Numbered from the stretch's first letter, positions 3,001 through 61,399 are shown. The stretch is DNA of 64,000 nucleotides from Raillietiella orientalis (GCA_036172245.1 JAYWIR010000056.1:558001-622000), one strand, 5' to 3'. Numbers and translations are program-made. Notes: generated from the sequence alone by a model not told the origin.

Positions 3001-3742
3001 GGAATTTTCGTTTCTGCCCTTCCACTCAAGTCTCCTGGGACGCCGGCTCGCTAAAAAGGAGCGAACAGGCAGCGGGTGAGCAGCGCACCCGTCTCCGAAA
3101 GTGAAGCGCGCCGTCCACCACGCCATCACCGCTTCCAACGGTCCATTGCAGCCGGGCACCTGGCAACCGACATCGACAGCATCGGGGGTAGAGTCAGCGT
3201 GGAGATGTCTGCATGCGGAATGCCGGAGGCGGGGACGTCTGTGGTGGGATGCAGTGGACACAAAACACGCTCCGAAGCATTCCATTTCACGAACGGAAAT
3301 GGCTTCGTCTGTCTGTTGGAGGTCGTGGCTCCCTGCACTGTAGCAGCTCAGGGTAGAAGGGGCAGTGATAGAAAGCGCTCGTAACTAACAGCGTGGAGGC
3401 AGATGGTGCATTTCAACACATCACCACCCGGAAGATTCATAAGGTCGCCCTGGTCAGTTGCTGAACAGAACAGAGTCACGTTCTTGGCTCATTCCCCCAG
3501 CCCACAAGCACCCAGAAACTCAAAAATCTGTCTCAATGAATGCAACTTGCACTTTTATTTGCCTGCTAGCCGGGTCGATCGCATCAATGCTGGACATCCG
3601 CACGAATGACCGTTGCAGCCGCAGAACGGAATGTAGACGTCATGCTACAGACACTCCTTCACCCTCGCGATCCCTGCGATATCGCTGTTCAGGTTTCCAT
3701 GGCTCCCTTCCCACTGTTTGAAAAAAAAGTGTCCTGCTCGCT

Positions 3743-4558
3743 ATGCACGTTCGCTTCCTGCTACAGAATACGGAACACATCAGCACCATGGACAATGCTT
3801 TGGATGGATTGAGTTCGGATGCTGCAAGGGAAGACTCGTCGGGCGTGCTGCCCATTCCGCGCGGGTCGACTCCCGGGACGGCAGAGTCGTCTACCAGCGG
3901 AATTTCCCGCTGCCAGATCGCCTGGGAACAGCAGCCCATCCAGCTGTTTCCCGGCCTCCAACTGTGGACCACGTTGGAGTCCTCCAACTCGTCTTCCTTC
4001 ACTTCAGAGGAAAGCACCGCCGCGATTGAAGCTGCGCGGGAGATCCACCTGCCACCAGCCGATCCGTGGGCGTCACACCAGGCGTCGGAGCACCAGGATC
4101 TACGAATCGGAACCACTTCCTCAATGGCCAACGGTTCCTTCTTTTCCATATTCCTCGGAGACTACTGTCCTCACTGCGAGCAGTTCACGACGAGCCCCGT
4201 CTGGGACTGAACGGCGGTGACACAGGGTGTTCCGCGGCCGATTTGGGGACTGGTGCGGGGCACTGGTCACCCCGGCGAGGTTTCCCCGGCGGCGGGTGCT
4301 GCGGAAGCCCAGCCTACGCCCTGCTTGGAAGAGGACGTGCGAGCCACCGGAGACGTCTGCGTTTCCGGAGGAGGGAGCTCCTGCGGGACAGCGGCCTGCA
4401 GCAGCAGCGCATTAGCCTCGGAGAGCGTCGACTCCAGCACAGGAGGCGGCTCAGGCCTTGCCGAAAGCACCCCGTCCTCCGGGAAGAGCGGCCTGAAGAA
4501 CAGGATGCGCATCTGCGTTTCTCCTCGGCATCGGCGCCGGAGCGATCCACATCAATGA
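3743..4558 (+). other. Unrecognised ORF family, copy 1: 272-codon frame interrupted only by TGA at 4208-4210
   Basis: ORFs 3743..4210 and 4217..4558 are in the same frame. They contain FLGDYCPHCEQFTTSPVWD*TAVTQGVPRPIWGLVRGTGHPGEV (4151-4282), shared with copies at 11076-11207 and 14642-14511. Confidence 0.6.
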
Positions 4559-7500
4559 AATCCCTGCTACTCGGTTTGAGTGAGTTTTTTTTTTCTTGTG
4601 CCTAGCAGTCAATGCAGAACGAATCTCAGAACAGATTACTTCAAAGGAAAGAAAGGGGAACAAAGGAACCTCCTTCCATGGGTTTCCAGCCTCCACCTGT
4701 TCTTGAATGCCACTCCTAAGATTCTTTCATAATGGTTCTTTGATTCTGCATTACTGGATGTCGAAATGCAATACGCTCGGTTAATGCGAATGAACTTTGT
4801 CGTCACACCGAATGTACATGCATTTGGAGGTTCAGCGATGAATTTCCTTCCGCTTGAAAGGTACGTAACCAAGGGAAACACACAAAGCTGAAAGGACCAC
4901 ACAAATGATGTGCTGATCCAAATCAAAGCTTTCAAGTATTTTTCATTTGCAAATACACATTGCTTGTGACCTCTGCAATATCACAACTACCAATATGCAA
5001 CACATCAGGAGAATTTTCAAGTTTTGGACTCAAGAGTCAGATAAACAGATCTCAACGAAACAAATCATCTCCACATAGAACCTACTTTCTCTTCCACTTT
5101 GCTCATAAGAGAGTGGGGCTCATATTTGTCAAAGGATTAGACGAGAAAACGATTCCACATAACAGCATGCATTCGGAATACAACATTCGCTTTCACAAAC
5201 TGCGCTGGGATTGTAGAAAAAGACCATTCCATAATTCGGAAAGTGCATGAACACATTCGTACATTGACCTGTCCAGTTTCTCTTCAAAATGATGATACTC
5301 CCATCTGCAAATTTGGAACACCATCAGAACTTTTCATTGCATTGATGAAAAACTCAACTTGGGAATAACTCATGATTCCGTGCTAATTGCTGATGTCATC
5401 TTTGCATTATTCCGAAAAATAGAACTGTCCTGCCTAAGTTCATCAGTCACATTAGAAAGCAAGTCAGCATACCCGCAATACGATTACCATCTTTAGCTGC
5501 TCCGAAGGGCACTTTCACCCTCTAAGTGGCATGGTATTTTGTATAGAGCTGGAGCTATAATCATCCAGTGGAGAAGAAGCAAACAGTTCAAAATCTTGAC
5601 TTCCAGTATGGACGGAGGCATTGACATGACCACTGCAAGAACACAGTTCACATATAGAACAAAAACCCTTGAAACTGGAGCGGAAGGTTTCATTTTGAAG
5701 GAACTTGTCTTACAGCGATCCAGAAGTCCCTCACAGAAGAAATCGGACAGGCCCGGAATCCAGATTTTCTATGAAGAGTCGGTTGAATTCAAAGACTCCT
5801 GAGGGAACACATTGATTCCAACTTTCAAAGAAGACAAGTTCATGAGAAGGGATGTTTCAGCTTTCCACCTCCCTGCAAACGTCCTATTTCTCAATCGATG
5901 CGTACCATCACAGGATGACACCAACATCGTGAGACAGGCCTGCGAAGAAAGAAGTGACCGCTGGAAAAATCTACCACAAGTGTGACACGGTTAACTAGAA
6001 CATGTTTGCGCACATGCTGAGAGTGGTGATGCGGAAGTACTTTACAGCATTCGAGGAGCACCAAGGCAAAGGAAAGAGGTCCCACGCGTCCTTGGGCGAG
6101 AGCTCCTGGAATCCTTTGGGAGCAACTCGCGAAATCGCTGATTTTAAAGAAACAAGCAGGTGCTTTGGGAGAGTTTCAAAGATTGAGCATAATTGAATTC
6201 ATTTCTGAGTCGATCCCTCTGGTATTCGAATGAATACTATTCGCGCTTTTCAGTCTTATCCAAGAATTTTCAGCAACTCCTCGATATCCTTAATGGCAAC
6301 TTCTACTTCCATGATGCCATCAACGCACTCGACCCTTGTAAGGAAGTCGCCAAACACTGAATACACGGAACCTGACGCCGATTTCAACACAATGTACACG
6401 TCTCCTGATATCACACTCACGTCTTTCGAATTTTGGGAAACCGTTTTCCGAGGGGAATTTTTTCATTCCAGCGTGCTGAAGAAGGAAATCCTACACGAGA
6501 TGGAAGCAAAAGAAATTCAAAATACAAAGAGAGCGAAGATTGCTGCTCCACATTCTTTACATGAATGATTGGGAACGTATGTGACCATTTTGCAAAGAAC
6601 ATTCAAGAAACGTACTTCTTGTACATCTTCGTCATGCAGCATTTAAGGAAAAGAAAAGAAAATAGCCAATCATCACAAAATGGAAATCTCATCATAGGAC
6701 TGCCTCACGATTCAATGTTCTCTGAGCAGCTTGCAGATTCTCACATTGTATTCGTACCGATTCGCAGTGTCAGTTCTTATCCCCATCTATGCATCTGACT
6801 TGCAGTCCCTGCTAACCAATTTGGGAAGCAGAGGGCCAAAATTTACCTTCTCCCTGAACGACAAGGGAACATGTAGAATTGAAAAGATGGAGAATAGAGT
6901 TTTTGTAAGAACAACATGCAACGAACGGTAATGAGGAGGAACGACACCGTCAAAGTAAATCACGAAGCAAGACATGATCTTGGTTCCCCACCTTGTGTAC
7001 TGAAACACTGCAAAGAAAGGAAAGGAAAAGACAATTCCTCTTCTGGTGAAAATCCGAAAACATCGCTCACGTGTACCACAAGCGGTGCAGACACTTGAGA
7101 ATCAGTTCCCTTGCTATCTGAAAATTTCCCCTTTTCATTCCAGAATTGTTCGTTACAACAAATCATAGTACATAACACCGATGAACTTTTCAATGTACTA
7201 AACATTGGAACACAGCTGAAGGGAAACCTTCTCTTCAGGTTGTTGAATGACAAGGCTGATCATTTTCGCAGCCATACGTACACACTCAAGTGAACTCTTA
7301 TACAAATTCCTTCTGAAAATCACCGTTACGGACGGGAAGGTTTCATTGCAGTTCCTCATACAATTTGACGGAAGGAATGGGACTGATCAGGAGAGTTTCG
7401 AGAAAAGTCAGCCCCTGTGAGACAGCAGCCCTCTGCAGCCCTCTGCCTTCGAGCGTCGACTCCAGCGCTGGACGCAGCTCTCGCCTTCCTGACAACGCCC

Positions 7501-8009
7501 CATCCTTCGGGAAGAACGGCGCCAGAAAAAGGATTCGCAGGTTCCTGCGTAGGTTCCTCTACAGGATGCTCTTGAGCGTCGCTAGCTAATTCAGAAGCAC
7601 TACATGAGGAATCCGTTCGAGTGGTAGGGGTTGAATAGGGTGGAAGCACGAATACAACCGGGTGCTGAAGCAGATGGACGCAACTACAAGGAACTTCGGG
7701 GTTTCAGGACAACGACAACAGACGTGCAAAGCATACACAATTGAAACGAAATGGAGTAAAGGGTTATGCAAGCAAGTAGAGGTGACATGAAAACGGCCAC
7801 AACACCCAGGGCCCGCGTCGGAGGCCTTGTGGTTGAGGCTTCCGCGTGTGGCACCATGCGTCGCGGGTTCGAATACTTCGGCAGAAACTCTGACGCCATT
7901 GCGTCGTTTGGGTTCCGAGTTTCTCCTGCAATGGAGCTGGTTGGCCAAGACATTCGGGCGTGGCGCCGGTGGTGGTTTAAAGCGGAGGCCCCCGATGAAG
8001 GCCGGAACA

Positions 8010-8880
8010 ATGGGAGTCGACCTTCGGGTCCTCCCAGGAATCAAGGAGTGGGGAGTTTCCCCCTCCTGTCGTGCAACGGAGAGCGGACCCCCTCACCGAG
8101 GGACCCCTCCAGTTTCAAGATGGAGCAGGAGCCCTCACGGGCACCTCTCCAGTTGTTCAAAGGAGAGGACCCTCCCCATTGCGGGGGGGACCCTCCGAGT
8201 CGTCGCCTCTTCACAGAGTGTGCACAAGGAAGCAAGCGAGAGCGATTCTCTGCGGGAAGCTGCAGCGCCCCTTCTGAGTTTCGGAAGCGTCCCTTCGGGT
8301 TCTCTTCAGAAAAGTGAACAGGAGCGGTTCCCTTGCAGGTTCCCTCCGGAGAAGAGATTCCTACAAGCGGATCCTTTCCGGGTTCCCTTCGGAGGAGTTG
8401 AAATGGAGAGGACCACCTCCCTCCCAGGGGATGTCCCTCCGGAGAGAATGAGGAAGGAGATTCCCTTCGGGGTTCCCCTTTGGAGACAACCAGGGTGGGA
8501 GATGCGATCTTCCCCCTTCCGGGGGGATCCCTCCCCAAGCGTGAGAGGAACGGACTCCGAGCCCTTCCTGGATTCATAGGGCGGACCCCCATCCCGGGGT
8601 GCCCCCTATCCTTATTACACGCCCCCTGCGGGTTGCCGCGGGCGGAGTGGCGTGGAAACAAAACAGTGTGTTAAAAAGAGCCACGTACGCCGCGAGGCAC
8701 GCGACCGGCTCTGAGGTACTTAGAGAATCAAAAAAAAAGAAAACTCTTAAAAAAAAAAAAAGCTGGAAGAAAAACAGCGAATTCAGAAGAAAAAGAAGAA
8801 CCCAAGGATTTCCATCGTCCTAGGCCAATAGTAACGATCTCCTCGTGGGGGTCACTACTGGCCTTTTTAAAAAAAAAAAA
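8010..8880 (+). mobile_element. Related non-autonomous or deleted retroelement copy ending in a hairpin and poly(A)
   Basis: Shares CCAAGCGTGAGAGGAACGGAC..GAGCCCTTCCTGGATTC and TAGGCCAATA...CTACTG.CCTT with the 54-55 kb element, and ends in A12 at 8869-8880. Confidence 0.65.
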
Positions 8881-9679
8881 CACCTAGGGACATTTTCCAG
8901 TTTTCGGAAGATGAAAGCACGAAAGCTTCCAGCAGAAAGAATTCACATTCTTTCTGATAAGCAAATTCGTGGCCATTAGAAAAATCCCGGAAAACTCCCT
9001 GGGCAAATAGATAACACAGTTCTTTGAAGATCGGGAATTACGGTATGCACTCTTAATCAACGGAGAAACCTGCAAATAGGACCATGAAAGAACACAGACG
9101 AATTCCCATCTCACTCCATAGCTTTCCGAAGAGACGCAAAAATGACTTGAACGGAATAAAATGAGATGAAACTGATGCGATTGTGATTGTCAATTAGCCA
9201 TTCGAACTTGCTGGAAATATCGACGAAATGAACCTCTCGCTCTATCGGGATCCATAGAAAAATGGTTTCAAATAGTCATCTCTTGCCATGATACCCAAGG
9301 GCAAGGGGAACTTTCAGCTGCCTTTTGTGCTAAATCACATAAGAGCAAACAGGGTGAGCACAGAAACCATCAAAGTTCATCTGGAGGAATGATTTATTGA
9401 GACTTTGAAGTCTGCGGAATACTACCTGTGAACCTTTTACGTAAGATTAAGAAAAATGAATCCTCAGCATCCAATGCACATGCAGAAAGCTATCACTTAC
9501 ATGCTTTCCGTTGCATATTTGAAGCCAGCAGTGATTTGCTCTTATTAATGAAAGAGGATGTCACTTTCGATGGAAATCCGTTCGTCGGATGAGCTGATCA
9601 GAAATGAACACATTCATACTCGTACAAGTGGCATTCCTTTTGCAAAAACTCGAATGTAGGAGGTTGAGTTCAAGGAGTG

Positions 9680-10060
9680 ACCTATCGTTGCACACCCAGA
9701 TGACCTCCTAGAGTTCTACGGAGGAATCCGGAGAGGAACAAAATGAATAACTTTAAGGGCAACCAAACTGATGAGGATTGCAGATCATGGGGTGACGTGA
9801 ACACGAGACTTTACATCTTGACCTCTCCCACGATGGTTCAAGACTGGCTACACCCTGAAAAACGAGATTGGGCTAGCTCGAAGATGGAAGTTCAGGAGGT
9901 GGTTTCAGGGAAACGGAAACGTCTTCCCCTACAACCCGATGGCAAGGACGACCTTCTCCCTGTTCATCACCGCCATCCTTATGCGATGGTGGAAGACGGT
10001 GACGGCCAGTACAGTCGTATCCTCCTTGGAAAGCCTGGAAGGCATTATCTTCGAACCTTT
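9680..10060 (+). mobile_element. Short decayed copy of lineage A non-LTR 3' coding region
   Basis: DDLLEFYGGI...EDCRSWGDVNTRLYILTSPTMVQDW...GNGNVFPYNPMARTTFSLFITAILMR aligns with 17069..17545. Confidence 0.65.
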
Positions 10061-10967
10061 TTCCAAAAGACGAGTTTGTCGAGTGAATGCGACTGAGAGT
10101 TTTTGCTGTATGATGCACTTGTACACACTAGTACACAAAACCGGAATTGGTTCGTCCTCACCTGTGAACTACGTACCACTGCATATTAACATGCACATTG
10201 TTCATAGTAATACCATTGTAAGGCATATGTGCAGACACGTTCATACACATATATAGGATTGTGAAAACGATTAACAAATACGTTTATCATCCACACACAA
10301 GAAACGTGGAGGCTGCTGGTCCAAACAGAAGAAAAGTCGGTTCCCTCGCTCCCTGACCTCCTTTCGATGTTTTCATGGTTCCCCTGAGAATAAAAACAAA
10401 AATCCCTGTCCTGCAGGCTACGTGCTCTCGTTTGCTTGTGGATAGACTCAGCGACAACATGCAGGGATGAACGTTTGATGCGAAGTCTGCACTTTCCTTG
10501 GTGCCAGGGACATCTTGCCAGGAGTGACGCTTGTTTCTCGCGGGGCGGCGCCAGAGGCGGCAAATTCGCTCGCCGGCGGGTTCCCGAGCGAGCGTGACGC
10601 CGGGAAAACCAGGCGCGGTTGGAATGGCGACTTTCGAATCCCTTCCATATGTTCTCCACCTCGAAGTGGTCTTCGAGCAGGGGTGACGAGAGACCCAGCT
10701 CGCCATCAGTGAAAGAGGTAAGCCCGAATGCGAAGGCGGATTGGTGGGCGCAAATAGAAATGGGGGTGGCGTCGTCGTCTGAAGGGCGGTGGCGGGTAGA
10801 ACTGGCGTCGCTGTTACAAGCGTGTCGGCTGGAAGAACTGGCGCCGCTTCCAAATGCGTGGCGGCCGCAGAGAGTGGCAATCTCTACGGATGCTTAGGAG
10901 CAGCAGGGGGGCGACAACTCTTCAGGAGGATTGTCGGCCACAGGAGATGGAGAATAAGGAAGCGTGA

Positions 10968-11282
10968 CGGCCGCAAGAACTGGGGCCGCTTTCGGTTGCG
11001 TGGAGGCAGCACGAAGCGGCGAGAGACCTGAATCCGTGGACCGCGCGCCCTATTGCAGAGGAATCCAGTCTGCCGTTCCTGGCTCCCTGTTGCCGTCACT
11101 GTTGCCACCTGTGTCTCGACCCAATGTGGGTATGGACATGGAAGACGGAAGGTGTCCATTCGCCGGATTGGTGCTCGATGCCAGGCAATGGTCGTCCTGG
11201 CAATGTTATGCTGACGGCGACTACATCGCTTCAAAAAGAGTTCCTCTCTCGAAAAGGAAGATGTACGCGAGCGGTGGCATAG
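10968..11282 (+). other. Unrecognised ORF family, copy 2 (decayed; Trp at the position that is TGA in the other copies)
   Basis: A frame not listed in the ORF track reads ...DLNPWTARPIAEESSLPFLAPCCRHCCHLCLDPMWVWTWKTEGVHSPDWCSMPGNGRPGNV... and aligns gaplessly to the motif of copies 1 and 3. It is flanked by stops at 10965 and 11280. Confidence 0.55.
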
Positions 11283-12439
11283 ACTCCAGCGCTTCAGCTG
11301 TAGCGAGGAGACGCTGTGGGACGGCGGCCCGCAGCTACAACTCATTAGCCAGCTTCGAAGACTGCAGCAGCGTGGGTAGCGGCTCTTTTCTTCCATAGTG
11401 TGCCCTGCCATCCCGCATGGCCGCCACCAAAAGGAGGATGGGCAGGTTCCTGCGGCGGCCACTTCTGTGCCGAGCTCGTCAGCTTCGCCGACGGGAAGCT
11501 GCATAAGAATGAAGTAACCACTCCTCGGATTCCCAGTTGGAACGTGGGCCGGGAAGTGGGGCGCGCGTGTTCACGAGAGGTTTTGCGCTTTCCGACAAAC
11601 TCAGATGCGCGAATCCTCGCGAGGAGGCGGTAAAGGCTGATGCCTGCTAATTGGAGAGATGGCGCACGCATCGCCACATGCAGTTTTGAGGAATGCATTG
11701 CAAAAGTGATTTCAGGAATTTGTTATCCCGAATCAGTTCCATGTTCCGAGAGAAGTGCGCTGCTCCTTCGCGACGCTGATCCGATTGCTTTCTGTGGAAG
11801 TACACATTGCGAAAGTCGTCAAGCGAGAACACACTTCGGCAAAGTTCCCCCGTGCCGCGATGAAATCGGAGAAACCATGGCTTTGCATGAGCCGCGGATG
11901 GGCTGATTCGTTTACCACGAAGCACTCCGTTCCAGGTGGCATATGCCGCGCTGCGCCGTTGCCCTCAGGAAAGCGGTTGTCCTTCAGGGTTTATCCTCCA
12001 CCAGCGCTTCCGCGATGCACGTCGCAAAGATGCGTTCCGCTGCCCTCCGAATTCCACTTCCACCCGTGTCTGCCAGCCACCTTCCACACACAAAGTTGCA
12101 TTCCGACTCTTCGGGCGAAGATGCACTGACCTCACTCCCATTTCAGTGTGAGTTCAACTGATGGAAGAGGTTTTGTCTCATCTGTAAGAGTGCTTCTCTT
12201 CTTCACGCTGAGAACTTTTTTCGTTGCGGTTGCGAATGTCAGCACGCACAGTGGTTCGTTCCTCGATCTGTTCTGGAATGTTCCAGAAGTCGCTTTCTAA
12301 GGCGAACCCGCTCTCAGTGCATGTTGGACTCTGTTTTCTTCTTTTCTCTCCTGCTCATTTTGAGAAAACATCTCTCACCGTGATGTGCTGGAAATCGCAC
12401 ATTCAGTTTTCACCTACAGTCTTTTGGTTTCTCTTTTCC

Positions 12440-14159: not shown

Positions 14160-15020
14160 CTAGGAAGGAGCTGCAGAAACCAGTGCTTTTAAGGAAGGAC
14201 ATAAAGATGCTGAAGAAAGCAAGGCCCTAAACAAAAAGGTCAAATCACGGAGAAGCATGGCTTGTTTCTCATTTTGCATGCAGAAGAAAATGATGGAAGA
14301 TGTGACCCCGGTCTTCCAAGAGGGCGGGGCGCCCTCATCATGGTCACTGCCTTCTGAGCTGGAATGGCTGCTGGCAGGCGATTGGAAGCTGCTCACGGCC
14401 GCCGTTCCTCCGCAGCCTTCTTCATCTCCAGCGCCGTTGGGTCCGGCGCTCACGCCCTCCGGCAAGGACGGCGAGTCCTCGGCGAGCATGGCTGCGGCCG
14501 GCAGCTGCTTGACACGTTCAGGAAGACCTGGGTCGCACACCAGGCTCCAGATGGGCTGCGGGACGCCACCGGTGACTGCCGTTCAGTCCCACATAGGGTC
14601 CAGCCACACTTGCCCACAATGCGGGAAAATTGGGTCCAGGAAAACCAATTGCTCTGCTCGCGGACTCCAAGGATTCGGGAGCGCCGTCTCGCGTCCAGGC
14701 GCCCGCGCATGCATTCCGTGCGGGTTCACCTCCCTCGTGGGCGAACGCTTGGTCTCGTCCGAGGTGGACGAAAACGAGCCGGCCGAGGTGAAGGTGCTCC
14801 AATCCGCCTGAGACACGCTACTGCACCAAGCCTGCTCCACGTTGCAGTCCTCTTCGTCGATCCAAGGCAGCTCGTCCACATCCAGTCCTCTTCGTCGATC
14901 CAAGGCAGCTCTTCCACATCCAGTCCTCTCGCGTACGACCCCTCGAATCAACGCGCGAGAAGCGCTCAGCCCACACGACGAGCTTGCCATCCTGCAATCT
15001 TGGCTCGTTCCAACGGACAT
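14160..15020 (-). other. Unrecognised ORF family, copy 3: 287-codon frame interrupted only by TGA at 14585-14583
   Basis: ORFs 14583..15020 and 14160..14540 are in the same frame with no other stop between them. Motif: FLDPIFPHCGQVWLDPMWD*TAVTGGVPQPIWSLVCDPGLPERV. Confidence 0.6.
14845..14929. repeat. 38-bp tandem duplication (~2.2 units)
   Basis: CAGTCCTCTTCGTCGATCCAAGGCAGCTC(G/T)TCCACATC starts at 14845 and 14883, with a partial third unit at 14921. Confidence 0.95.
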
Positions 15021-16189: not shown

Positions 16190-17560
16190 ACACGATGTTC
16201 GTCTTTACATAGGCTGTCCGGCGTCTTCGTAGCTATGGACCTTACGGGTAATGCGAGATTGCCCTCTTCATTCAATCTCTTTGCGTTGCCCCCTGTCATT
16301 CGATCATTTTTTTCCACGCTCCTAATCTTGTGCTTCGAATTCGTACCGATTTGGCCGCAGTCATTTCCCTCATCGTCACAGGCCATAGGACGAGGCTGTA
16401 AACATCCTCCCGGAAGTACAAGACCGTCCTCGTAAGCAAGGCTGGTGGCTGACGCGAGCGGCTTCTCTTGGTCGTGTACGCCTGCACTGTTGCGCAATGG
16501 CGCCGTGGGCTCCGTGGATCTCCTCTTGGACGTGCGGCAAATCCTGAATCTTGCCACCAAATGGGACGAGTGGTCTTATGCGGCGCACAGAGCCTACTCG
16601 CAGTTGCTCAGCAATTCGAGGGTCCTTATGCCTGCCCTGATAGGCAAACAAGGACAGTAGAGAAACATCGATCCCACTTGGAAGCGCAAGCAGGCACTGG
16701 TGAACACCCACCATCTCAAAATAGTGCCTAGAAGTGAGGAAATTTGAAGAGACGAACTGGTGAAGATCATCTCATTCTTCCTGCACCTCCCTTGGGACAC
16801 CAGGAAGTGAATTTTCCGTTAGACCAAGGATGACCGTAAAGAACTGCGAGCAGTTCACAATCAGTGTTCACAATCACAAAAAGTGCTACTGTTCCGCCTC
16901 ACCAAGATGATAAGAAGATTTACCCATAAGTATCGACAGCTCTAGATAAATCAGGAATTCAACTGCTGTCGCCTGATCAACAAAGCAAATTTCCAGCAGG
17001 CTATCACAAAGAATCTCTACGAGGACGACGCTCTGTCTGCGGCCGCCAGCCGCTACGGATGCCGCCAGGTGAACCTGCTGGCGGTCGGAACCACGGTCTG
17101 GACGAGCAATTTACCACCCGACACTCAGGATGAGCTTCCGATGATTCATTACGGAGGCATCCTGAGTGTCACGAGGGCGAAACACTGGTCAGGGAACGCG
17201 CAAGACGGGATGTGCAAGGCCGGTGGAGCCAGAGAAACCCAACTCCACGTGCTCACCTGCCCTACGCTGCGCCGGGACTGGTCCAAGCTGAAGGAGGTGA
17301 CAGGCCTGCAGAGGATGGACAAGATGGAAATCCTGGCAGGGATGCTTGAAGGGAACAGCAACGTTCCTCGATACAACGCAATGGTCCGCATTACCATCGC
17401 TTTCTTTATCACGAGCATCGTGATGAGAAGGGCAAAAATGCGGCCAGGAATAAACAGTATGCCAGCTGTGGGGCTCCTGAAAGGTTTTGTGACGAGACCG
17501 AGAGGAAGCAACTGGGAAACCAATTACCTCGCAACTCTGCTGTGATCAGGAAACTGCATG
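16190..17560 (+). mobile_element. Decayed non-LTR retrotransposon (L1/Tx1-like) ORF2 C-terminal region, lineage A
   Basis: Peptide NLLAVGTTVW..LPPDTQDEL..IHYGGILS...KHW......MCKAGGARETQLHVLTCPTLRRDW resembles a degenerate zf-RVT-type C-terminal zinc motif. The upstream peptide W.YAAHRAY..L.S.S..LM..LIGK.G is shared with the copy at 48.6 kb. Multiple stops and frameshifts. Boundaries approximate. Confidence 0.7.
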
Positions 17561-22989: not shown

Positions 22990-24114
22990 CCTCTTTCTGC
23001 CACCTGAAGATCTTCGCCTCCTGCGACATCTGCTACCACGACCTCTGCAAGAGGTGCTGCAGGACGAGGTGAAGGTTTCCAACCCTGGCCGCCACACCCC
23101 TCGCCGCAGCGCTGCCTGTCCTCAGGGCAAGACATGACAGCTGCCTACCGGCGAGTTGGGAGGCTTCCTGCACCATAGCAGGAAGAAGAAAACTCCTCGG
23201 CGACTGGAAGACGAGCGAGTTGGCGGATGCTGCCACTCCTCGCGCTTTGGCGAAGGGACTCCTTCGGTAGGGAGAAGAACTTGGTGTTACCCCCGAAGAA
23301 CTAGTGGTCCCTCCCCATTATATTGACAGTTCGCTGCTCCCTCTTGCTTGGAAACGAGCCGTACTGCTCTTCGTTCGCTGGGGATTTCCAGTGTAACGAG
23401 CGTTGGCATCGTGTTTCCAGTGGGCTTGCGTCCGCGAATTGTGCAAGGTGCGGGACGACGGAGTCGATCCCGCAACTACTTCTGGACTGCGGTGTCCTTC
23501 GAGGACCCTGGCGGAGGCTGGCAACAGCACTCTCGCACCCGGAGGATACCGCAAGAGACTTGCTGCGACGATTCTTCACCCCGAGCGAGCCGACGACAAG
23601 CGCAAGGATTGCAACCATCGGTTGCATACGCGCCATGGTTTCAGTCCGACAGGGACGGGTGACCAACGGACAGCGTAAAAAGGTCGTCGGGAAGGCAGAT
23701 TCCTACATCGGGACGGCCGTCAGATGGCCTCATCTAACAGAATAAGATAGAAAGGAGATCACCGACATCCACCGCCGGTTTACAGACGGTCTGCCGCGGC
23801 TAATCCGGTGATCGTTGCCCCTGCCTCCCTATATTTTTGTTTGTTTTTTATTTTGTACCCGCGTTCCCTTAGGCTCCGTAACTTTCCTGGTGCTTTTTGT
23901 TTTTATCCCGATGAGAACGGAACTTCAGCAAAGACCCGTTCCTCTTCCCTTTCGTTTTTGTTTTTGTTATCCCCTTGTTCCTCCCCCGTTGCGGACTGTT
24001 TGTTTTCCCGGTCTGCGTGTCGGTGACCTCTCTTTTTCTTCTGTTGTTTTGTTGGTTGGGGACTTTGTCCCGACTGGTTTATTAATAAACGCCCCGGTGT
24101 GACCGGGTGATAAA
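22990..24114 (+). mobile_element. Non-LTR retrotransposon 3' end, lineage B (zinc-motif C-terminus, T-rich 3' UTR, AATAAA, terminal hairpin)
   Basis: CARCGTTESIPQLLLDCGVLRGPW (zf-RVT-like), then AVRWPHL, a T-rich UTR and AATAAACGCCCCGGTGTGACCGGGTG at 24084-24109. The 5' boundary is uncertain and may reach ~22.3 kb. Confidence 0.7.
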
Positions 24115-26612: not shown

Positions 26613-26627
26613 GTTCATTACAGTTGA

Positions 26628-30100: not shown

Positions 30101-33100
30101 ATCCTGCGTAGAAATGGGTTTGAAATATCTGTAGAGGATCGGACAAACCATGAATTTTACTTACAAAATATAACCAGCCGTCTAAAGGATGCAAAAACTA
30201 ACTGACTCACAAGTCCTTGAATGAAATTCCAGGAACTTGCCGAAGTGTCAGTGTTCTACAATTCGGAAATAATTGCAGCTCCCTAAAGCCAAAACGTCAG
30301 TTTCATGCATGGATTGAAATATGATGACTGATTTACTATATACCAATAAAAATGGGAAAAATTACTGGGGATGACCTTAAAATAAGTGATCATGGAGATT
30401 AAATCCCCAAATTGGGAGAAGCAGTTCTGAGAATACAATGGGAAGAGAAATCTCTTCCCATTTACATTCCATTGTTTTACAAAAGAGTTACAATGATCTT
30501 TTTACCGGATTCTCTTTGTACACTCAAGCATCCGGTAAAAGTGAATTATTCATGTGATATACTCCGTTAGTAGAGAATAAGCATGTAACAGATGAGTGTT
30601 TTTTGATTGTTGATGATGCTCTCTGGTTTGATTTGTTATTACTCCTTGTGCTTTTCGCCATGAGCATTACTTGCATTTGGTAACCCGTATTCGTTTCTGT
30701 GCCACGGGATGCGCTGTCGAGTTCCATGAGGGGGGTCTGGAGAAAACAACGAATGTGCTACTAAGTCCAAGTGATGGTTGCTTGCTCTACTTGCTGACCA
30801 TTTCCCTGTTTTTAGACCTTCTTTTCTGATCCCAAAAAAATCAGAATAAACACATGCAAAAGTGCATCCATCATTTATTCCAGGTATACGAGTGTTCTCA
30901 AAACATCGTCAGTCATCAAAAGTTCTGTTCTATTGATTTTGAAAATTATTTAATAGTGCTTTATGTGTAAAGCGCCTATTCCAGTGGTTAAGAAATTCAT
31001 ATTTGTTTTGTGATACGGCATTATGAAAATAACAGTCTGAATTTTTATTTTTGTAGTCTTCAAATAAATCTGAAGTACGTGAACCAAGTATTTTTTTGAA
31101 GTGTTTTAATTTTTGCACGTTTGAATTTAGCACGCTTTAAAAGTGTTCTGAATCAGACCATTAAGTGGTCCTGCAAACTAGGTATTTCTAGAGAAAACTC
31201 CGATAGAGGATTCATATGATAAGGGCAAAGAATTCCGTGGCTCTCAGGTGTTATTGATATTTGATAGGAGGAATGCTTTGCATTAGAGGCAATTGTTTTA
31301 AATGGCACTTTAAACACTGATAAGAAAAGGTTGTTGCCTTGATGGAACCCATTTTTAAGGACTGTTGCTATGCAGAATTTGTTTACTAATGTGTTTTCAT
31401 GCCTTTCTTTTCCCGTTCTAGTCTTATGTATCCTGTGAAACCAGTTATTTTGTATGAATCATGCCACGTCAACTGTGTTGTATCTGAGTGAATTCAGCAT
31501 TTCAGACACAAAAGTGTACCCCTCACGTGGATGCATTTTTTTTTTTCATTTGTATTTTTTCCAAAGTTTCAAAGTTGCACTGAACTTTTCACTGTTTTCT
31601 AGTAGAATCACAAGCATTTTGAATTTGCTACCAAAAAAGATGGAAGCCTTAATAAAAACATTTGTTGCACTATGCCTTTATCAGGTGTAAGATTGTTTAC
31701 TACTGTAACTTTGCCTTCAGAAGTTTTATTTGTTGCTCACAAACCTAATGAGATTAATAATTAATTATAATAAAAGCAGGAAGGCTTTTTCTTAACCTCG
31801 GAAACCGCAGTGCAAGTTCTTTCCAAAGATGAACCATTGCACTTTGTGTATTCGTATCCAAATAAGTGGAACTTCTATTGCATGATTTTATCTCGGATTT
31901 TTTAAATTGCAGTAAATTTATAAATGGCTGTTGCATTTATAGATGAAAGTACTTTAATCTACAAATGCAACAGCCATTTTATGCAGTCAACAGTTCCCAT
32001 TTCAAGCACTTAATCAGCTGCCTGTTAATATTTTAAGTACATACTGTATTACAGTTGAAATGCTGTAGCTTTTATGGTTCTATCCATGAAACGTATATTG
32101 AAAAGTTTTAATTGTATTTCAAGTTAGCAAAACTTGTTTCACACCCTGATCAAAGAAGTTCTGGATTAGCTTTCATACACTGTGATAGTTTGATATCTGT
32201 TAGTCGGAAATCGCAAACCCAAATGTAAGTACTTAGGTAGGAAAATTCCAATCATAATTTATTTTGTAGCCTTCCATCCATAAAAAGTAAAATATGCAAA
32301 AAGTGCCATTCATTTCTGCATTCTGGATTTTCAGCAAAGTATAGATTGCGTTAAAGGAGAGAGAAACATTTAGTAATTACATGCTTGAACTGCCGCACAG
32401 TAAAGAGATTTCCACTTAAAAAAAGGCTATTGCAAAACCTCACCTAGGTTTCTGAAAGAGTTGCAAGACGAAAAAATTTTAGAGGACTTCTGAACCATGT
32501 GCATGAAAATATGCAACAAAATGCAGTGACCAAGTTAATCTACCACGACTACCTTGCAATGCTTCTGAACACGTTTAAATAGTTTTGTTCCTTGTATTAT
32601 GCATGTTTTTCATCTGAATAAATACATTATACAGTACGCAATTTGTCTCAAACCTGCAAATTTTATTCCCGATCTCAAGAATCCAGTTCTTTACTTGGGA
32701 TATTCTCTCGCTTAGTGTTTACATGCCAAAAAAACATGCAATTGAAGCCAAAGCTGCCTGCTTGAAGTTGACTTATCGAATGCTATCCGATAAGTCTTCA
32801 AGGTCTTCACCAGAATACATTCCTATCTTCATTCGATGAAGTTGCACCGTTTTATGTGTTTCAAGGCTACAGACTCGAAGTGTATTTTGATGTTTGGGCC
32901 CAATTGCCAACATTGAAACCGCATTTGTGTGTGTGTGTGTTTTTTCTTGCAAATTAAGAACAAAAAATGAATTCGATTTCTAAAGGGTCTCATTCTTTTC
33001 TAACGTAGGAATCATGTCTTTTAAAAACAAAGGAATTAGAATATTCTTTTTCAGCGCATATTGTAATAGTAGTCTGGAACTTATTGATTCTGAAACGTCC

Positions 33101-35399: not shown

Positions 35400-36100
35400 C
35401 ACTAAGTGGCAATGCTTAGCACAGATAAACTTTAATCCGAACTGCCTCACTCTAGTTCTAGGGAGCAAGGCTATTCTGGTAAAAACCAAAAAAAAAAACT
35501 CAGATGCAGGGCTGAGTAACCTACAGTTCCAGAGAGCTGTACAAACCTGAAGCCCAGAATGGGGCAAGTTTGCTTCAAATCCTGAGAAGAGAGTGTGAAC
35601 CACACTGTAAATGCTGAAGAAGTCTTGGAAGTAAGCTGTGAATGGGATGCCAGTCTTCAATCCCTTTATGATAGGGGCCACCCTTTGAAGAAATCCAATG
35701 TCTTTGGAGATTCAAGATGGCCTTCTAATGTTTTAGCATGGAGGCACCTTGTACAGCACGAAGAGACACTGGCTGGATGATGCAGATGAAGAGCTGTGTC
35801 CAGCCTGGGAAACTTCGAAAAATCCGTTCCACATCATTAGCTGTTGAACCCTTGCCATAATAAAAAGCAGTAAGGCAAGCAACTGGCCTCCAGGGATGTA
35901 CAAAGTTGGAATTCCTAATACGAATTTTGGAAGGGGAGGGGAATGTTCTGAGTTATAACTGCATGGTGAGAGCTACCCTTGTCCTTCACCCAGAGCATTC
36001 TCATTAAGAGGAACAAACTTCAGGGGCTGTGCACAAACAGAAATCTGCAGCATCCTGATGGATCTGTTGAAGAGGAAGAGATGTCCACAGCTGTGATAGG
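35400..36100 (+). mobile_element. Old decayed copy of lineage A non-LTR 3' coding region
   Basis: Stop-ridden frame NPFMIGATL*RNPMSLEIQDGLLMF*HGGTLYSTKRHWLDDADEELCPAWETSKNPFHIISC aligns with the lineage A peptide. The element probably extends to ~34.6 kb. Confidence 0.6.
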
Positions 36101-45299: not shown

Positions 45300-45990
45300 G
45301 GAACGGCGAGCTCTGGAAGCATCAAGCGACCAATGCATGGCTCCTGATCACCAGAGCCACATCCATGAGGAATTGAAGGACACCAAAGAAGACGGCTCAC
45401 TGAACAAGGCCATCAACAGCTACTGGGTCCGGAACGTGAACCTGCTATCGCTCGGCACAACGATATGGAGGATCGATCTACCACCGGACACTCAGGATGA
45501 CCTGCTGATGTTTTACCACAAAGGCATCCTAAGTGGCTCCATACTGAAACATTGGACTAGAAGCAGCCAAGAGGAGCTCTGTAGGACCTGTGGAGATAGG
45601 GAAACCCATCTCCAGAGCTTCCACCTTCCCGACGCTGCTCCAGGATCGGACAAAGCTGAAGGCAGTGACTGGCTGCAAGCGAAGACGAAGATGGAGATCT
45701 TGGTGGGAAAGTTTGAAGGGAACGGGAACGTTCCCTGATACGAGCCCGTCGTTCGCGCCACCATCGCCCTCTTCATCACGAGCATCGCGACAAGAAGGGC
45801 AACGATGAGGAACCCGGAGCAACACAGTGCCTACCACAGCTATCGTCCAAGGAGTCATCAAGAGGGAGATAGGAAGCAGGAACTGCGGAAGTCCAGACGG
45901 GCAGAAACCCGTCTGGACTTACCGCTACATCTTGAAGGAGATGGCGGATGTGGCCCAAATTAGTAGACTGTCCTCCAGACCCTAGTAACT
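45300..45990 (+). mobile_element. Lineage A non-LTR 3' coding region, frameshifted
   Basis: NLLSLGTTIWRIDLPPDTQDDLLMFYHKGILSGSILKHWTRSSQEELCRTCGDRETHL...KMEILVGKFEGNGNVP, with an intact CxxC...ET..H motif. Confidence 0.75.
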
Positions 45991-47399: not shown

Positions 47400-49700
47400 A
47401 GGACGTTCCCGACATTCCCTATCTTCCTTGAAGAGATTCTCCAACACGGCTGCGCAGTACAGCGCCTTCTCAGGATGCAGCAGCCAAACGCACCGCATCC
47501 GCACGCGAACCTCCGTCATCTCCAGCCCAGGCGCCCGCCACTTCTGCCAGCAGACGTCATACCTCGGGGATACCGCGTGTGCGCAGCGAGCCCGACTCCG
47601 CGCAGAAGCCGCCTTGCAAGAAGTCCCATCGGGACCAGCTCTTGATCGCATCGCGTCAAACGCTCCCCGAGGACATGGGGAATCAAAGACGGAGGCGTCG
47701 GGTCGGTTTCCAAGAGGGAAACCGAACCGGCTTGAAATGCAAGCAGCGCACCCACGTGGCCCGGAAATGGAGACCAGTCACCAAACCTCTCGGCTGATCC
47801 TGCCCGGTGGCGCCTGAGAGCCGCGCAGTTGAAATGAACCGACTGAGAGATCGCCGCCGCAGCCAAGACGAAATCGTTGAACAGATCGCCGATGGCGATC
47901 TCGCGCTCGCTCGGTAAGGGAGGCTCGTGGCCTCGTCTTTCTCAGGTGATGGTGCGAAGGATGCAGGTGCGATAGGCAGCAGATCTGCACCGGATCCACG
48001 AGGTCCTCATTCTCCAAGCCCCACTCGAGGTTCGGGGTTTCCATGGCGATCCGGAAGGATCACTGGCTCGCGGCATTCTCAACGGAGGCAAGAGCTCTTT
48101 CTCGAAACGGGCAACCGCCAGGTGCAGCGTTTTCCGCAAATCCGGCGATGGTGACCACATTGCAACACATGCAGTTGAATAGGCGGTGCAAAGCGAAGGA
48201 CAGGAAACCGCAGATGATCGACGCCTCCCCACAACGCCACGCGGAGGGTCGCGATCCGCTCCGCAGTTTCCCCACTTTTCGCCAAGCACTGGAGCAAGGA
48301 ACCTCGCGCCCGTGTTCATGGTGAGTATTGGCCGCTACCGGGTGACCTTGGTCTCCTCCCTTCGGACACAACCTCGTGCTTCCCCTGCGGAACGCCACTG
48401 GGGTCTTCCTTCTTCCTTGATTTTCGTCGTCCGCTCGTGGTGCAGCCGTGCAGATATCGCTGGTAGTAAGAAATCTGCCGAATGGGCAAAAACACCCGAT
48501 GGAAAGAAAGAGGCTACAAAGGAAGATCTTCTGGAAGGAATTTAAGCCTCGAATGAGGGTCAAGACTTAGTGCCGCCCGAGTGAGGAGGGCGAGATCAGT
48601 ATGAAGTCGCTGCAAGAGCCCGTGGAATTCCTGGATGCGCAGCATATCCTGGAACTCGCCGAGTACTATGAGAAGTGGCCCTTTGCGGCTCACAGAGCCT
48701 ACTGGAAGTTGGTCAGCAGCTCGAGTGGCATGATGTCAGATCTAATAGGCAAACATGGAGACTGGGGGAATATCGACTTTACCGTGGAGGAGGGAACAGG
48801 CACCGGTGAGAATCCAACATCGGAAAATAGTGCCTCACAGCAAGAAAATCTGGAAGGAGGAACTGACCTCGGTGGCACCTCGCTTCCTTCCCGTTCAGAC
48901 GTGGGGGACGTAGCCGTGGATACACCGCAGGCCAGGGATGAGAGTGCAGGACTACGAACGCTTCGCTGCCAGTGGCAACCGTTAACTTATGTGAATGTTC
49001 CAAGACTATCAGAAAATGACAGGAAGACAGGACACGCGAGGTGTTGATACAGCAAAAGAACGTGAGGTCCCTGATGACGAGAAAAAGTTTGAACAGTCTT
49101 CTTTGCACCGGAAAGCAGCAAATCAACGCCCTTGCCACCGCTGCCAGCCGCCACGGATGCCAGGACGTGAGTTCGAGAGCGGTTGGAGAAACCAGGTGGC
49201 ACAGCGATTGGCCACCCAATGCTCAGAATGACCTCTAATGTTCTACTACGGAGACATCCTGAGCGAAACAAGAACCAAGCACTGGACGAGGAACTCAGCA
49301 GGAGAGATTTGCACGGCCTGTGGAGACCGAGATACCCAGCTGCACATTAACTCACCCGCCTGACGCTCGACAGAGACTGGAAGGCGCTGAAAGTGGCGAC
49401 TGGCCTGTAGGAGAAGATTAAGAGAGAGACTCTGACTGGGTTGTTCGAAGGGGATGGAAACGTTTTTACACGACATCCCATGGTCAGGACCTGCCTTGCT
49501 CTCTTCATCACGAACATCGTCGTAAGAAGAGCCAAGCAGAGGAAAAGGAAGTGCGCACTTCCAGTGATGGACATTCTTTCGGGACTGATCAAGAAAGAAA
49601 TCGAAATTCGCAGCTGGGGGAGAATCCCCTCCTGTACATACGTGTACATTTTGAACAAAATAAGTGCAACTGTCCAGGCGCGAGGGAATCCCACTGTAGC
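47400..49700 (+). mobile_element. Internally deleted, decayed lineage A non-LTR element (possible gag-knuckle and endonuclease remnants plus C-terminal region)
   Basis: The 3' part (48.6-49.7 kb: WPFAAHRAYWKLVSSSSGMMSDLIGKHG; KHWTRNSAGEICTACGDRDTQLH; FEGDGNVFTRHPMVRTCLALFITNIV) is clearly homologous to the other copies. The 5' remnants (CKQRTHVARK knuckle-like; SRFGVSMAIRK APE-like) are weak. Confidence 0.6.
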
Positions 49701-49789: not shown

Positions 49790-50560
49790 AACCCAGGTCG
49801 ACTGCGACTCGAGTGGTCTGACGTCGTCCCTAATCGGCAAACCTGGAGAATGGGTGGACATGGACCCCACCTGGCAAGGGATGCGCTGTGCACTGGATGG
49901 TGAATCCGACCTCGGTGATTCGTTGGGACTACGAGCAGTCCACCACTTGAGCAACCACTACAAGACGCGACTGTCTTGAACTCGAAGCAGCCGATGGGAC
50001 GCTGCACGCTCAGGAAATGCGAGATCTGGAAACAACCAGAACGGCATCGCGCGGTCCAAAATGAGGAGGGAGAAAAGCACCAAGAACTTCTTTCCACCAA
50101 AGAAAGAAACCGCGACGCCCCTCCACGCCACGAATATGAATCTACGAGCGGTTGGAGTGACAGTCCGGAGGAGTGACCTGGCACTGGACGCTCAGGACAA
50201 CCCCCTCGTGTCTCATCATTTGAGTGGCTTGAGAACCAAACTCTGGACAGGCAGGTGTGGAGCCAAGGAAACCCGGTTCCACTCACTCACCTGCCCGACG
50301 CTGCGCCAAGACTGGGCAGTGATGGAAACGGTGACGGGACCGCAAATGAGACCAAAGAAGGATTGTCCTAGGACTCCAGGACAATGTTCCCCGATCCAGT
50401 CCCGTGGTGCGACACTGCGAGATCGTGATAAGAAGGGCAAAGATCGGAAATGACAGGACGATAACCGGCCTGCCGTTGAGATCCTGAGGATCAAGAAGCG
50501 CTCGGAACTGCTGGACGAATCCCAGCTTGCGCCTTGAGGAAGGTTGAGGGGCTCCGGTGA
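49790..50560 (+). mobile_element. Additional tandem fragment of lineage A 3' coding region
   Basis: SSGLTSSLIGKPGEW...NLRAVGVTVRRSDLALDAQDNPL...GRCGAKETRFHSLTCPTLRQDW repeats the region just upstream. Confidence 0.65.
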
Positions 50561-53229: not shown

Positions 53230-54049
53230 GTTAGTGGTTTCATATGTTACTCGAATAGGGTGGTTTCTGTGGTAACCTCCAGCAACTTCGATTTCGAAAA
53301 CGTGCAAAAAGATAAACATTGGGTTTCCGTTTACCTCGACAAGCGCGCTTCCCAAGAAGGACTTGGGTGAAACTCGAATTTTCGGGTGATTCAAATCAAC
53401 ATCCTTTCTTTCTTTTGGAACGGTACGCTGGCGGTGCTAAACGAATAAATATACCGAATGAATAATATGTCATCATCTACAGTCGCGTGAGACTTTGCGG
53501 CATTTGTTTCTCTTCGTTTTCGTCATTACTTGAGCAAAGCGCTAATCAGAGGCAGGCTAACTAATAGGTGGGACCGGTGAGAACTTGTCCGGATTTGAAA
53601 AGCCATCCCGTATCATCTCGAAGGCTGCAGCTGCACGAAGCCTTCATCTTGATGCCTGCGCGCTTAATCATGCAGGGATCTTAATAGCCTAATGATGAGT
53701 GCGTAAAAAGTGCGTGTTTGTGGTGTGTGTGTGTTTCGAAAACGTGACGTCATTCAGATACTTCTGACTATCTGAGCTGCAGTCAACGGTCCCCCCCGAA
53801 CTCGCCGATGATAACCTATAACCCTCTTGCCAAAGGCCACAAAACTTGGATGCGCGTCATGTGGATGACAGAGAATTCGCACCACCTGACGAAACCACTA
53901 AAACTCATGAAACCGTCAAAGTGCCCGCGTCGGCGGCCGCGTGGCTGCGGCCTCCGCACGTGGCAACGAGCGTCGCGGGTTCGAATCCCGACCGGGGAGG
54001 GATCGACGCCGACGAATGAGTGCGTCGTGGACCTCGAGTAGCTCCCCAC

Positions 54050-55272
54050 CCCCCTGAAGGATGACGCTGGCTGGACTGTAGGCTTCAGATGCCGCACCGG
54101 TGCAAGACCGGAAACTGTAGACTTCAGATGCCTCCGTTGAGCGGCCGGGATTGGAAGTCGATCCTGCGGGGGACCCTTCCAGGAACCAGGGAGCCGGTTC
54201 CCTTCGGAGTTCCCCTCCGACTGTGGAAACGGAGCCGCACCATGGAGCTGGTTGATGCTCTTCCGCGGGGGGCTGCATCTCCGGAGTATCACAAGAGCGC
54301 CGCAACCTTCGGAAAGCTCCCTGAAGAGAAATCGGCTAGCGTCCCTTCCGGGTTCATCTTCAGGGGAAGAAACAGGAAGCGGATCCTTTCCGGGTTGCCT
54401 CCGGACAAGAAATTCTAGGAACGGCCTTCGGGGTTCCCTCCCAAGCGTGAGAGGAACGGACGGAGCCCTTCCTGGATTCCCATAGAGTGGTCCCTCCGAG
54501 GTTCGCCTCCTATAACTTGAGAAGTTACATGCACCCTCGGGTGGCGTTTAAGAGCATCGGGAGTTCCTCTCGGGGGGGACTCACGAAACTCTTAAACGCT
54601 CCCAGGAGGGCGAACGGTTCTTCAGCACTCCTTGAGAGCCGAAAAAGAAAAGCCGTAAGGAAAGCAGCGGGAACGGAAGAACCACCCCAAATCTCCGTCA
54701 TCCAAACCTCAGGACCCTGCGACCCCGAGTGTCCCAACCGCCAAGGGCTTGTACGCTGGGGAGAGCTGCTCGGAATCCTCTGGAGGAGGTGGAGTGGTTC
54801 CCACCGTTCCGGAACAGCGGTACGCTCCTCCTCGAGTGGCAGGAGTGGAAGTTGGTGTTGTTGCTGCATGGGGGAATTCCAGGGAAAGAGCTCCTTTACC
54901 ATCGGAGACGGAGGAGCGTGGGCGCTCAGTGCGACAGGTGCGGGAAGAAAGAAACCCTCCCGAACCTGCCGTTGGACTGTGCTGCCTTCAGACCCCTTTG
55001 GGATCGCCTTTCTGCGACCCTAGGATCGCCAGTGGGGGCGCCCCCAGGGACATTTTCAGACACCTCTTCGTGCGTGCCGCACGGCCGCCACCAGCCGCGT
55101 CACTCGCAGTCTTTCAGCACTTTGAGAACCAAAAAAAGGACAACCCGGAAAAAAAGAAAAGAAAGCAGGAAGGAAAGCGGAGAAAACAGAAGAATCCGAG
55201 ATAATTTCCGTTATCGTAGGCCAATAATGACAACCTCCCCATGAGGTAGCTACTGACCTTTGAATTAAAAAA
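54050..55272 (+). mobile_element. Retroelement-derived unit: hairpin array, lineage B-like zinc-motif fragment, A-rich 3' UTR and terminal hairpin
   Basis: CDRCGKKETLPNLPLDCAAFRPLWDRLSATL resembles 23323..23745. Segments 54150-54485 and 55130-55272 are homologous to 8010-8580 and 8720-8880. Confidence 0.7.
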
Positions 55273-60672: not shown

Positions 60673-60857
60673 GGAGAAGAGCACATATCTCTCGAAGTTA
60701 TATTCAAAGCCTACGCAGTGAATGACCACCACGAGAAACCACCTCTGCGACACACCATCTCCCTGACCCAGAGCAATGTTTGGCTGCATCGCGCCGGGCT
60801 ACTCGACGGCCGCCGCGTCACCACGACCGACACCGGAGTGGAGTTTTCCAAATTCAG
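60673..60857 (+). CDS. Internal exon of a TPPP/p25-alpha (tubulin polymerization-promoting protein) family gene
   Basis: An exon bounded by gacag| and |GTCAGT encodes GEEHISLEVIFKAYAVNDHHEKPPLRHTISLTQSNVWLHRAGLLDGRRVTTTDTGVEFSKF. This matches the arthropod TPPP pattern (F..FA...ITLSQSDKW...A..IDG.K.TTTDTG..F.K). Downstream exons were not identified in the window. Confidence 0.8.
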
Positions 60858-61399
60858 GTCAGTCCACGTAAAAAGTACGCAGGCCAGAGCGATCGCGTCT
60901 GTTCCTGAACCGGGGACCGTCGTCCTCTCAACGGTTGCCTGCCTCCCGCCTGAACATTCGATTAGCGTCTGGTGACCTTCTCCGGCGCAGTTCACGCAAG
61001 CGTGCATGGCGTTTTCGTCTTCCCCGTTTGATTCGGTGCTGCCACGTCATTGCTATCAAAACGCCTCTCTGAAACAGCGCGCTGCGTTCGGGGGATCCCA
61101 AACAGACCCAATGCCGAGTCCGATCGGAAGGGCGGAAAAGTAGAGATCGCGGTGAGTGTTGGAAACCATCGAAACCAACGGCATTTCCCTCTGACGTGCC
61201 TCGTACCGATCAGCAGCAGAAGAAGAAAAAAAAAGAATCCCTGAATCGTCCATTTTTCACGGAGACATGAAAGAGAAATCTTCTCCCGGATATCCTGGGT
61301 GGATTCAAGATAAACGAAAAGAGTAAACACGGGAAACTCAGTGCTCGCAGATGTGAAACATTCTCGAAACATCGACATGGAGCTGTGGGACTCTTCAAG

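Follow-up and report, generated by a model that had tools for sequence, protein, structure and literature searches.

A shared in-frame TGA in a cluster of orphan paralogs of Raillietiella orientalis: nonsense allele or recoded codon?

When the same stop codon interrupts the same conserved segment in two related reading frames, and a third relative has a sense codon at that position, is the stop read through, or has a gene family begun to decay? The question is raised by a stretch of 64,000 nucleotides of the Raillietiella orientalis genome (GCA_036172245.1 JAYWIR010000056.1:558001-622000; the whole of this stretch is called the window below). A preliminary description of the window reported three segments that align over 44 codons, two of them interrupted by TGA, and proposed that the UGA is recoded, either by programmed readthrough or by selenocysteine (Sec) insertion. 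Its three translations prove to be letter-exact: the TGA is present in two copies, here called A and D, and the copy at 11076-11207, here called C, has TGG. (The preliminary description numbered by coordinate, and A, C, and D are its copies 1, 2, and 3, respectively.) The count on which the proposal was built also holds, since A and D are identical at 25 of 44 residues, and 15 of these are specified by different codons, 6 before the TGA and 9 after it.

Members of the family and their setting

Four members of the family lie within 11 kb, all of them between 3.7 and 15.1 kb, as judged by self-comparisons of the window and by a family profile run on its six-frame translation. The profile detects no further copy in the six-frame translation of the 64-kb window, the second GC-rich island included. 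Copy A (3743-4558, plus strand) is a frame of 272 codons from the first ATG to a terminal TGA, or 278 codons from stop to stop, with one internal TGA at 4208-4210. It contains a conserved block of 52 codons (4148-4303, plus strand), in which a CPHC motif is followed by the TGA and then by TAVT..GVP.PIW; the codon-phase substitution pattern of this copy is restricted to that block. Copy B (7401-7588, plus strand) is a C-terminal fragment that does not include the TGA block. Its core (7451-7539) is 76% identical to 4423-4511 of copy A over 89 nt of DNA, and the DNA upstream of it is AT-rich and unrelated to the family. The first frame of copy C (10914-11279, plus strand) carries the conserved block with TGG (Trp) at 11133-11135 replacing the TGA. 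The C-terminal homology of this copy, a pseudogene, follows at 11294-11503 (plus strand) in another frame, owing to a frameshift, and has an in-frame TAG at 11396-11398.

Copy D has the opposite orientation (15020-14160, minus strand). Its frame of 287 codons extends from the ATG at 15020 to a TAG, is 298 codons long from stop to stop, and has one internal TGA at 14585-14583. The conserved block of D (14490-14645, minus strand) shares 27 of 52 residues with that of A, at a DNA identity of 57%. Within the N-terminal part of the D frame is a tandem duplication of 38 nt (14845-14920, minus strand; 37 of 38 positions identical), a length that is not a multiple of three. The frame lengths given in the preliminary description, 272 and 287 codons, are correct if the count begins at the first ATG (3743 in A, 15020 in D) and ends at the terminal stop.

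DNA similarity between the copies is limited to the coding-like part, and self-comparison of the window finds no alignable similarity between their flanks. The copies had been described as dispersed; A, B, C, and D are instead old paralogs, clustered locally in tandem and inverted orientation. A dispersed mobile element was considered and rejected, because the flanks are unlike, the similarity is confined to the coding-like part, and the second GC-rich island has no copy. Upstream of the block, at a distance of 8 to 31 codons, A, C, and D share an in-frame motif, LP..(N/D)PW, and the indels among them are multiples of three. The CPHC motif of A lies 11 codons before the TGA; D has FPHC and C has CRHC. 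This motif suggested a thioredoxin/DsbA-like CxxC protein, a candidate that was rejected given these variants in D and C, the count of 0 Pfam families, and the lack of a fold.

The family is absent from every sequence collection searched. Pfam gave no family hit for 150 of the 157 window ORFs of at least 100 aa (the set ends before the last 7, from 61314 on), and 0 families for A and D read through; the three sub-threshold matches in the window (MRP-S34, TAF2_3rd, and p25-alpha) all lie outside the family. None of the 1813 candidates from a word search with read-through A proved to be a homologue at E <= 0.01, and the profile built from the five rows of the family alignment had 0 matches in 1.84 billion representatives. 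Single-protein searches produced 132 pattern matches in metagenome contigs and 2 in viral contigs, with 0 confirmed in either. For the native ORF of copy C, the Atlas returned a recognition value of 1127 and a best score of 0.78, with nothing higher. Structure prediction of the read-through product, a route that the preliminary description had suggested, gave no usable fold (mean pLDDT 44.6, pTM 0.21). The phenomenon itself would be of a known kind under either of the leading readings discussed below.

The window around the cluster is made up, with sharp changes in composition, of AT-rich stretches (31-39% GC) and GC-rich islands (50-64% GC), the latter at about 2-17.5 kb and 44-64 kb. The CpG observed/expected ratio is 0.37-0.77 in the AT-rich, host-like stretches and about 0.9-1.05 in the islands, which hold repeat relics, the orphan family, and, on both strands, a large number of overlapping open frames. 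Copies A and D have GC3 values of 0.70 and 0.64, compared with 0.68 and 0.59 in the repeat relics and 0.22 and 0.39 in MsrB1; in this respect the family resembles the relics and not MsrB1, the one clear host gene. The MsrB1/SelR gene occupies 27150-26560 of the minus strand, in an AT-rich part; its introns measure 57-60 nt, it terminates in a TAA near 26620, and its exons match Pfam SelR at 37.7 and 27.3 bits (cut-off 24.9). Its Sec-TGA (26756-26754) is found at the expected catalytic position, in ...SRF-TGA-IYS..., and a SECIS-like hairpin at 26602-26563 (minus strand) has an ATGA core, an unbroken helix II of 12 bp, an unpaired AAA, a GA, and a helix I of 8 bp. This gene shows the host genome to be of animal type and to use the standard code together with Sec decoding; the preliminary description had been right about its Sec machinery.

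The repeats of the window are of at least two kinds. One dispersed family, at about 67-72% DNA identity, occurs at 16500-17500, 9740-10058, 35716-35986, 45376-45810, 48600-49596, and 50133-50363; its decayed ORF has a Cys/His motif reminiscent of the C-terminus of non-LTR retrotransposon ORF2. These "LINE-like" relics have no match in Pfam and none in a homologue search of 350-2000 aa. The second family, at 7808-8883 and 53920-55282, is made up of blocks at 70-85% identity, and a relative of it (23434-23541 / 54924-55031) has a similar CxxC...C motif. The ORFs of the relics are full of scattered TAA, TAG, and TGA codons. Elsewhere in the window, a palindrome of 58 nt, 93% self-complementary, is present in an AT-rich part (31922-31979), and the sub-threshold p25-alpha match (60670-60972, plus strand; 18.7 bits, cut-off 22.6), which falls within the second GC-rich island, may be the exon of a host gene.

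Codon phase inside and outside the conserved block

The argument for recoding depends on how the copies have diverged around the TGA, and the phase and recoding comparisons rest on three sequences, A, C, and D. In the three-way alignment of 44 codons, 25 columns are invariant at codon position 1, 21 at position 2, and 9 at position 3. Differences between A and D show the converse distribution (12, 14, and 28 of 44; Fisher p = 3e-4), and they do so on each side of the TGA, with 7, 8, and 12 of 19 before it and 5, 6, and 16 of 24 after it. Third positions around the TGA are thus near saturation in this pair, at 63-67% different. Nei-Gojobori estimates of the A-D pN/pS for the block of 52 codons come to 0.39 for the 20 codons that precede the TGA (p = 9e-4) and 0.51 for the 31 that follow (Fisher p = 0.01). 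As read from these alignments, a block of about 52 codons has a true codon-phase pattern on both sides of the TGA.

Across the block, pN/pS in the sense frame is 0.47, 0.63, and 0.60 for the three pairs, the lowest of the six frames in every pair, so the frame chosen in the preliminary description stands against its antisense competitor. The frame named in its caveat, on the antisense strand with shared third positions, is next lowest, at 0.55, 0.77, and 0.68. Inside the block, however, stops interrupt that frame 3 times in A and once in C. Given the lowest pN/pS, the antisense stops, and the fact that the long antisense ORFs lie in differing frames, the sense frame is the best candidate. Simple ways around the TGA were rejected as well. 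An intron that removes it is not compatible with conserved codons that abut it on both sides, and frameshifting at the TGA is not compatible with a conserved downstream frame that is the same frame. The relationships among the copies also change at this point. Before the TGA, D is nearest to C (8 of 38 first- and second-position differences); after the TGA, D is nearest to A (11 of 48 first- and second-position differences, versus 23 for D and C).

Outside the block, divergence has the appearance of neutrality. In protein-guided alignments, differences between A and D number 48, 49, and 55 of 96 by codon position in the N-terminal part (pN/pS 0.80) and 40, 42, and 40 of 80 in the C-terminal part (pN/pS 0.89). 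The other pairs likewise show no phase bias, whether in the C-terminal part (A-B, 7, 5, and 9 of 30, 29, and 30 sites; A-C, 23, 19, and 20; B-C, 19, 19, and 19) or in the N-terminal homology of A and C (31, 27, and 27). Conservation ends about 31 codons past the TGA. The claim of protein-level selection straight through the stop is thereby narrowed: the phase bias is indeed present on both sides of the TGA within about 52 codons, but there is none elsewhere.

Under the standard code, each of the four copies has at least one lesion: the TGA in A; truncation in B; the frameshift and TAG in C; and the TGA and the 38-nt duplication in D. By their sequences, B and C are plainly dead. Copy A has no demonstrable lesion besides its TGA. 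In D, the duplication alone places the ATG at 15020 in frame with the block; with a single 38-nt unit, the frame from this ATG would hit a TAG, and the frame of the block would close 8 codons upstream of the repeat. The 287-codon frame of D is consequently a recent accident. Nor is the length of the A and D frames informative. The preliminary description gave weight to the TGA as the only interruption of a long frame, which is true of both copies but commonplace in the window, where 29 frames of at least 272 codons have one internal stop, a TGA in 20 of them. Among these 29 are another frame at the A locus (3637-4605) and several at the D locus. A long, singly interrupted frame is no more than chance in this GC-rich DNA.

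Readings of the shared TGA

The reading that we place first, with confidence that is about evenly divided, is that the paralog family is in decay and that an ancestral Trp codon has become the same nonsense allele in A and D. The four copies are old paralogs of an orphan, GC-rich, low-complexity frame that resides in a GC-rich island of repeat relics within an otherwise AT-rich genome. A block of roughly 50-80 codons, from LP..NPW through FL...PHC to G.P..V, would have been coding for most of the history of the copies, and the family would now be decaying, as suggested by the truncation of B, the frameshift and stop in C, and the frame-shifting 38-nt duplication in D. The TGA of A and D would then be a nonsense allele of the Trp codon that C has kept as TGG, and not a programmed recoding signal. 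It could have come to be common to A and D by a short exchange between paralogs or by a recurrent G-to-A change. Since the divergence of A and D after the TGA is not neutral, this explanation would require the TGA to be recent in both copies; we infer that it is recent and non-functional.

Each of the two routes to a shared TGA has a cost. One-step nonsense changes are available at 84 sites in A (73 codons) and at 98 in D (86 codons), and the chance that independent hits would fall on the same codon is roughly 1 in 100. Exchange between copies that are only 57% identical is not expected to be frequent. Around the stop, A and D have in common an identical run of 14 nt, TGGGACTGAACGGC, which is longer than phase-preserving shuffles give (p = 0.011). 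This run fits a small exchanged tract and a constraint on stop context equally.

The second reading, which we consider possible but doubtful, is programmed or leaky readthrough. According to this idea, A and D would be expressed, and the UGA would sometimes be decoded by a near-cognate Trp-tRNA, which would restore the ancestral Trp and add a conserved extension of about 30 or more residues. The same TGA codon is present in two copies whose third positions are near saturation and whose first and second positions are conserved before and after it. In the third paralog the codon is TGG, the sense frame has the lowest pN/pS of the six, and A, C, and D differ between their conserved motifs by indels that preserve the frame. 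Both stops are UGA-A, and a constraint on stop context would account for the identical 14-nt run. If the TGA was inherited from the common ancestor of A and D, then the phase-biased divergence that follows it would indicate continued translation. In its fullest version, this idea makes A and D functioning members of an animal gene family specific to the lineage, with a UGA-A kept by selection at an ancestral Trp codon, midway through the sole conserved domain, and read through by Trp-tRNA; this version strikes us as rather unlikely from the alignments available.

Several observations weigh against readthrough. The context is UGA-A and not the leaky UGA-C; in PMC4748822, UGA-A is described as favouring Trp-tRNA in yeast and is not a high-readthrough context. 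Such a preference would fit the Trp in C, but it gives no sign of high efficiency. There is no stable or covarying RNA structure downstream: folds of the 93 nt from the stop are no better than those of shuffles (z = 0.05 for A, 0.87 for D, and -1.26 for C), and the alignment fold downstream of the TGA has no covariation support (covariation term +0.56). Furthermore, conservation stops about 31 codons past the TGA, the start codon of D is in frame solely via the recent 38-nt duplication, the product is predicted to be disordered and has no relatives, two of the four members are plainly dead, and the prior for a functional internal readthrough site is low. Of the recoding claim as it was first made, then, the coding-type divergence past the TGA survives inside the block, but the signal is local, the copies bear lesions, and there is no recoding signal.

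Improbable, in our estimate, is the possibility that the block is not read in the sense frame at all, so that the TGA is a by-product of antisense coding or of a constrained non-coding element. By pN/pS, the frame on the antisense strand with shared third positions comes second, and in D it is open for 215 codons (14164-14811, plus strand); in the N-terminal homology of A and C, an antisense frame scores 40.9 bits versus 24.0 bits for the sense frame. Within the block, however, the frame with shared third positions contains the stops noted above in A and C, and the copies A, C, and D have their long antisense ORFs in differing frames relative to the block. The antisense match amounts to 36% over 80 residues (44.6 bits), compared with 27 of 52 residues (63.8 bits) for the sense match, and a non-coding element would not yield the 25, 21, and 9 invariant columns seen by phase.

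There is very little to recommend the idea that TGA is read as Trp, through A-to-I editing (UGA to UGG) or because the DNA was inserted from an organelle or symbiont whose code has TGA=Trp, although TGA and TGG do alternate at one codon. The conserved blocks of A and D are inverted, and arms of 74 nt (4195-4268 and 14525-14598), 72% complementary and 10.3 kb apart, could in principle pair in a long transcript. However, in alignments of the repeat relics of this one window, 0 of the 20 TGA-containing stop columns (among 36 stop columns) face TGG; the partners of TGA are CGA, AGC, AGT, TGT, TGC, ACA, and other stops. MsrB1, moreover, uses TGA for Sec and ends in TAA. A NUMT or symbiont insert was rejected given that Pfam reveals no organellar or bacterial domain and that the DNA is GC-rich.

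Least credible of all is Sec insertion, in which A and D would be lineage-specific selenoproteins and the TGG of C would be secondary, in a pseudogene. The host does decode UGA as Sec, as judged by the MsrB1 TGA and its hairpin, the TGA is conserved in two paralogs, and A has the CPHC motif 11 codons upstream. Yet D has FPHC, the counterpart residue is Trp (TGG) and not Cys, and no SECIS-like hairpin is found in the 2.4 kb downstream of the A TGA or in the 2.3 kb downstream of the D TGA, which leaves this part of the original proposal without its expected element. The scan combined pattern and fold, and its positive control, the MsrB1 hairpin, ranked first in its region; among the 61 candidates with an ATGA core in the window, it alone has an unbroken 12-bp helix II. 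Downstream of A and D, the only candidates have GTGA cores with irregular stems, and those of D lie inside the ORF. Rfam reports no SECIS in the window, but this result is uninformative, as the MsrB1 element is also missed even at E <= 10.

What the locus means depends on which of the two leading readings applies. If A and D were live and read through, there would be a short and a full-length form, and old paralogs would harbour an internal readthrough that splits a domain, rather than the usual C-terminal extension. A functional TGA would mark a point of readthrough within a conserved domain; with a neighbouring copy that has the Trp codon as a natural control, it would offer a convenient system for studying selection on UGA-A context and near-cognate decoding by Trp-tRNA. 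If the family is decaying, which we think more likely, then the locus is an ordinary one whose main use is as a warning: long frames that contain one TGA are commonplace in GC-rich repeat islands, and a coding-type pattern between paralogs can outlive the gene.

Comparison with known systems

Eukaryotic selenoprotein genes, such as MsrB1/SelR, are similar to this family in having an in-frame TGA conserved between homologues within a Sec-decoding genome. They differ in that the family has no SECIS, has Trp in place of Cys, and lacks redox geometry such as CxxU.

Animal readthrough genes provide a closer parallel. Four mammalian genes reportedly have conserved stop-codon readthrough. In these systems, as here, a relative may have a sense codon at the homologous position. 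PMC5100048 reports conserved readthrough for hundreds of insect genes, and the Anopheles/Drosophila candidates it describes resemble the present block in having a coding-type pattern past a conserved UGA. Those cases are based on orthologues across species; the present one is based on three paralogs of one genome, read from sequence alone. In addition, the stops here have the UGA-A context instead of UGA-C or UGA-CUAG, the signal extends for about 31 codons past the stop, and members of the family are degenerate.

Clusters of duplicated pseudogenes share with this family a local arrangement of tandem and inverted copies that bear a frameshift, a stop, a truncation, and an out-of-frame duplication, and here too there are no relatives, domain, or fold. 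The difference is that divergence between A and D within the block is not neutral, unlike that expected of a nonsense mutation inherited for a long time.
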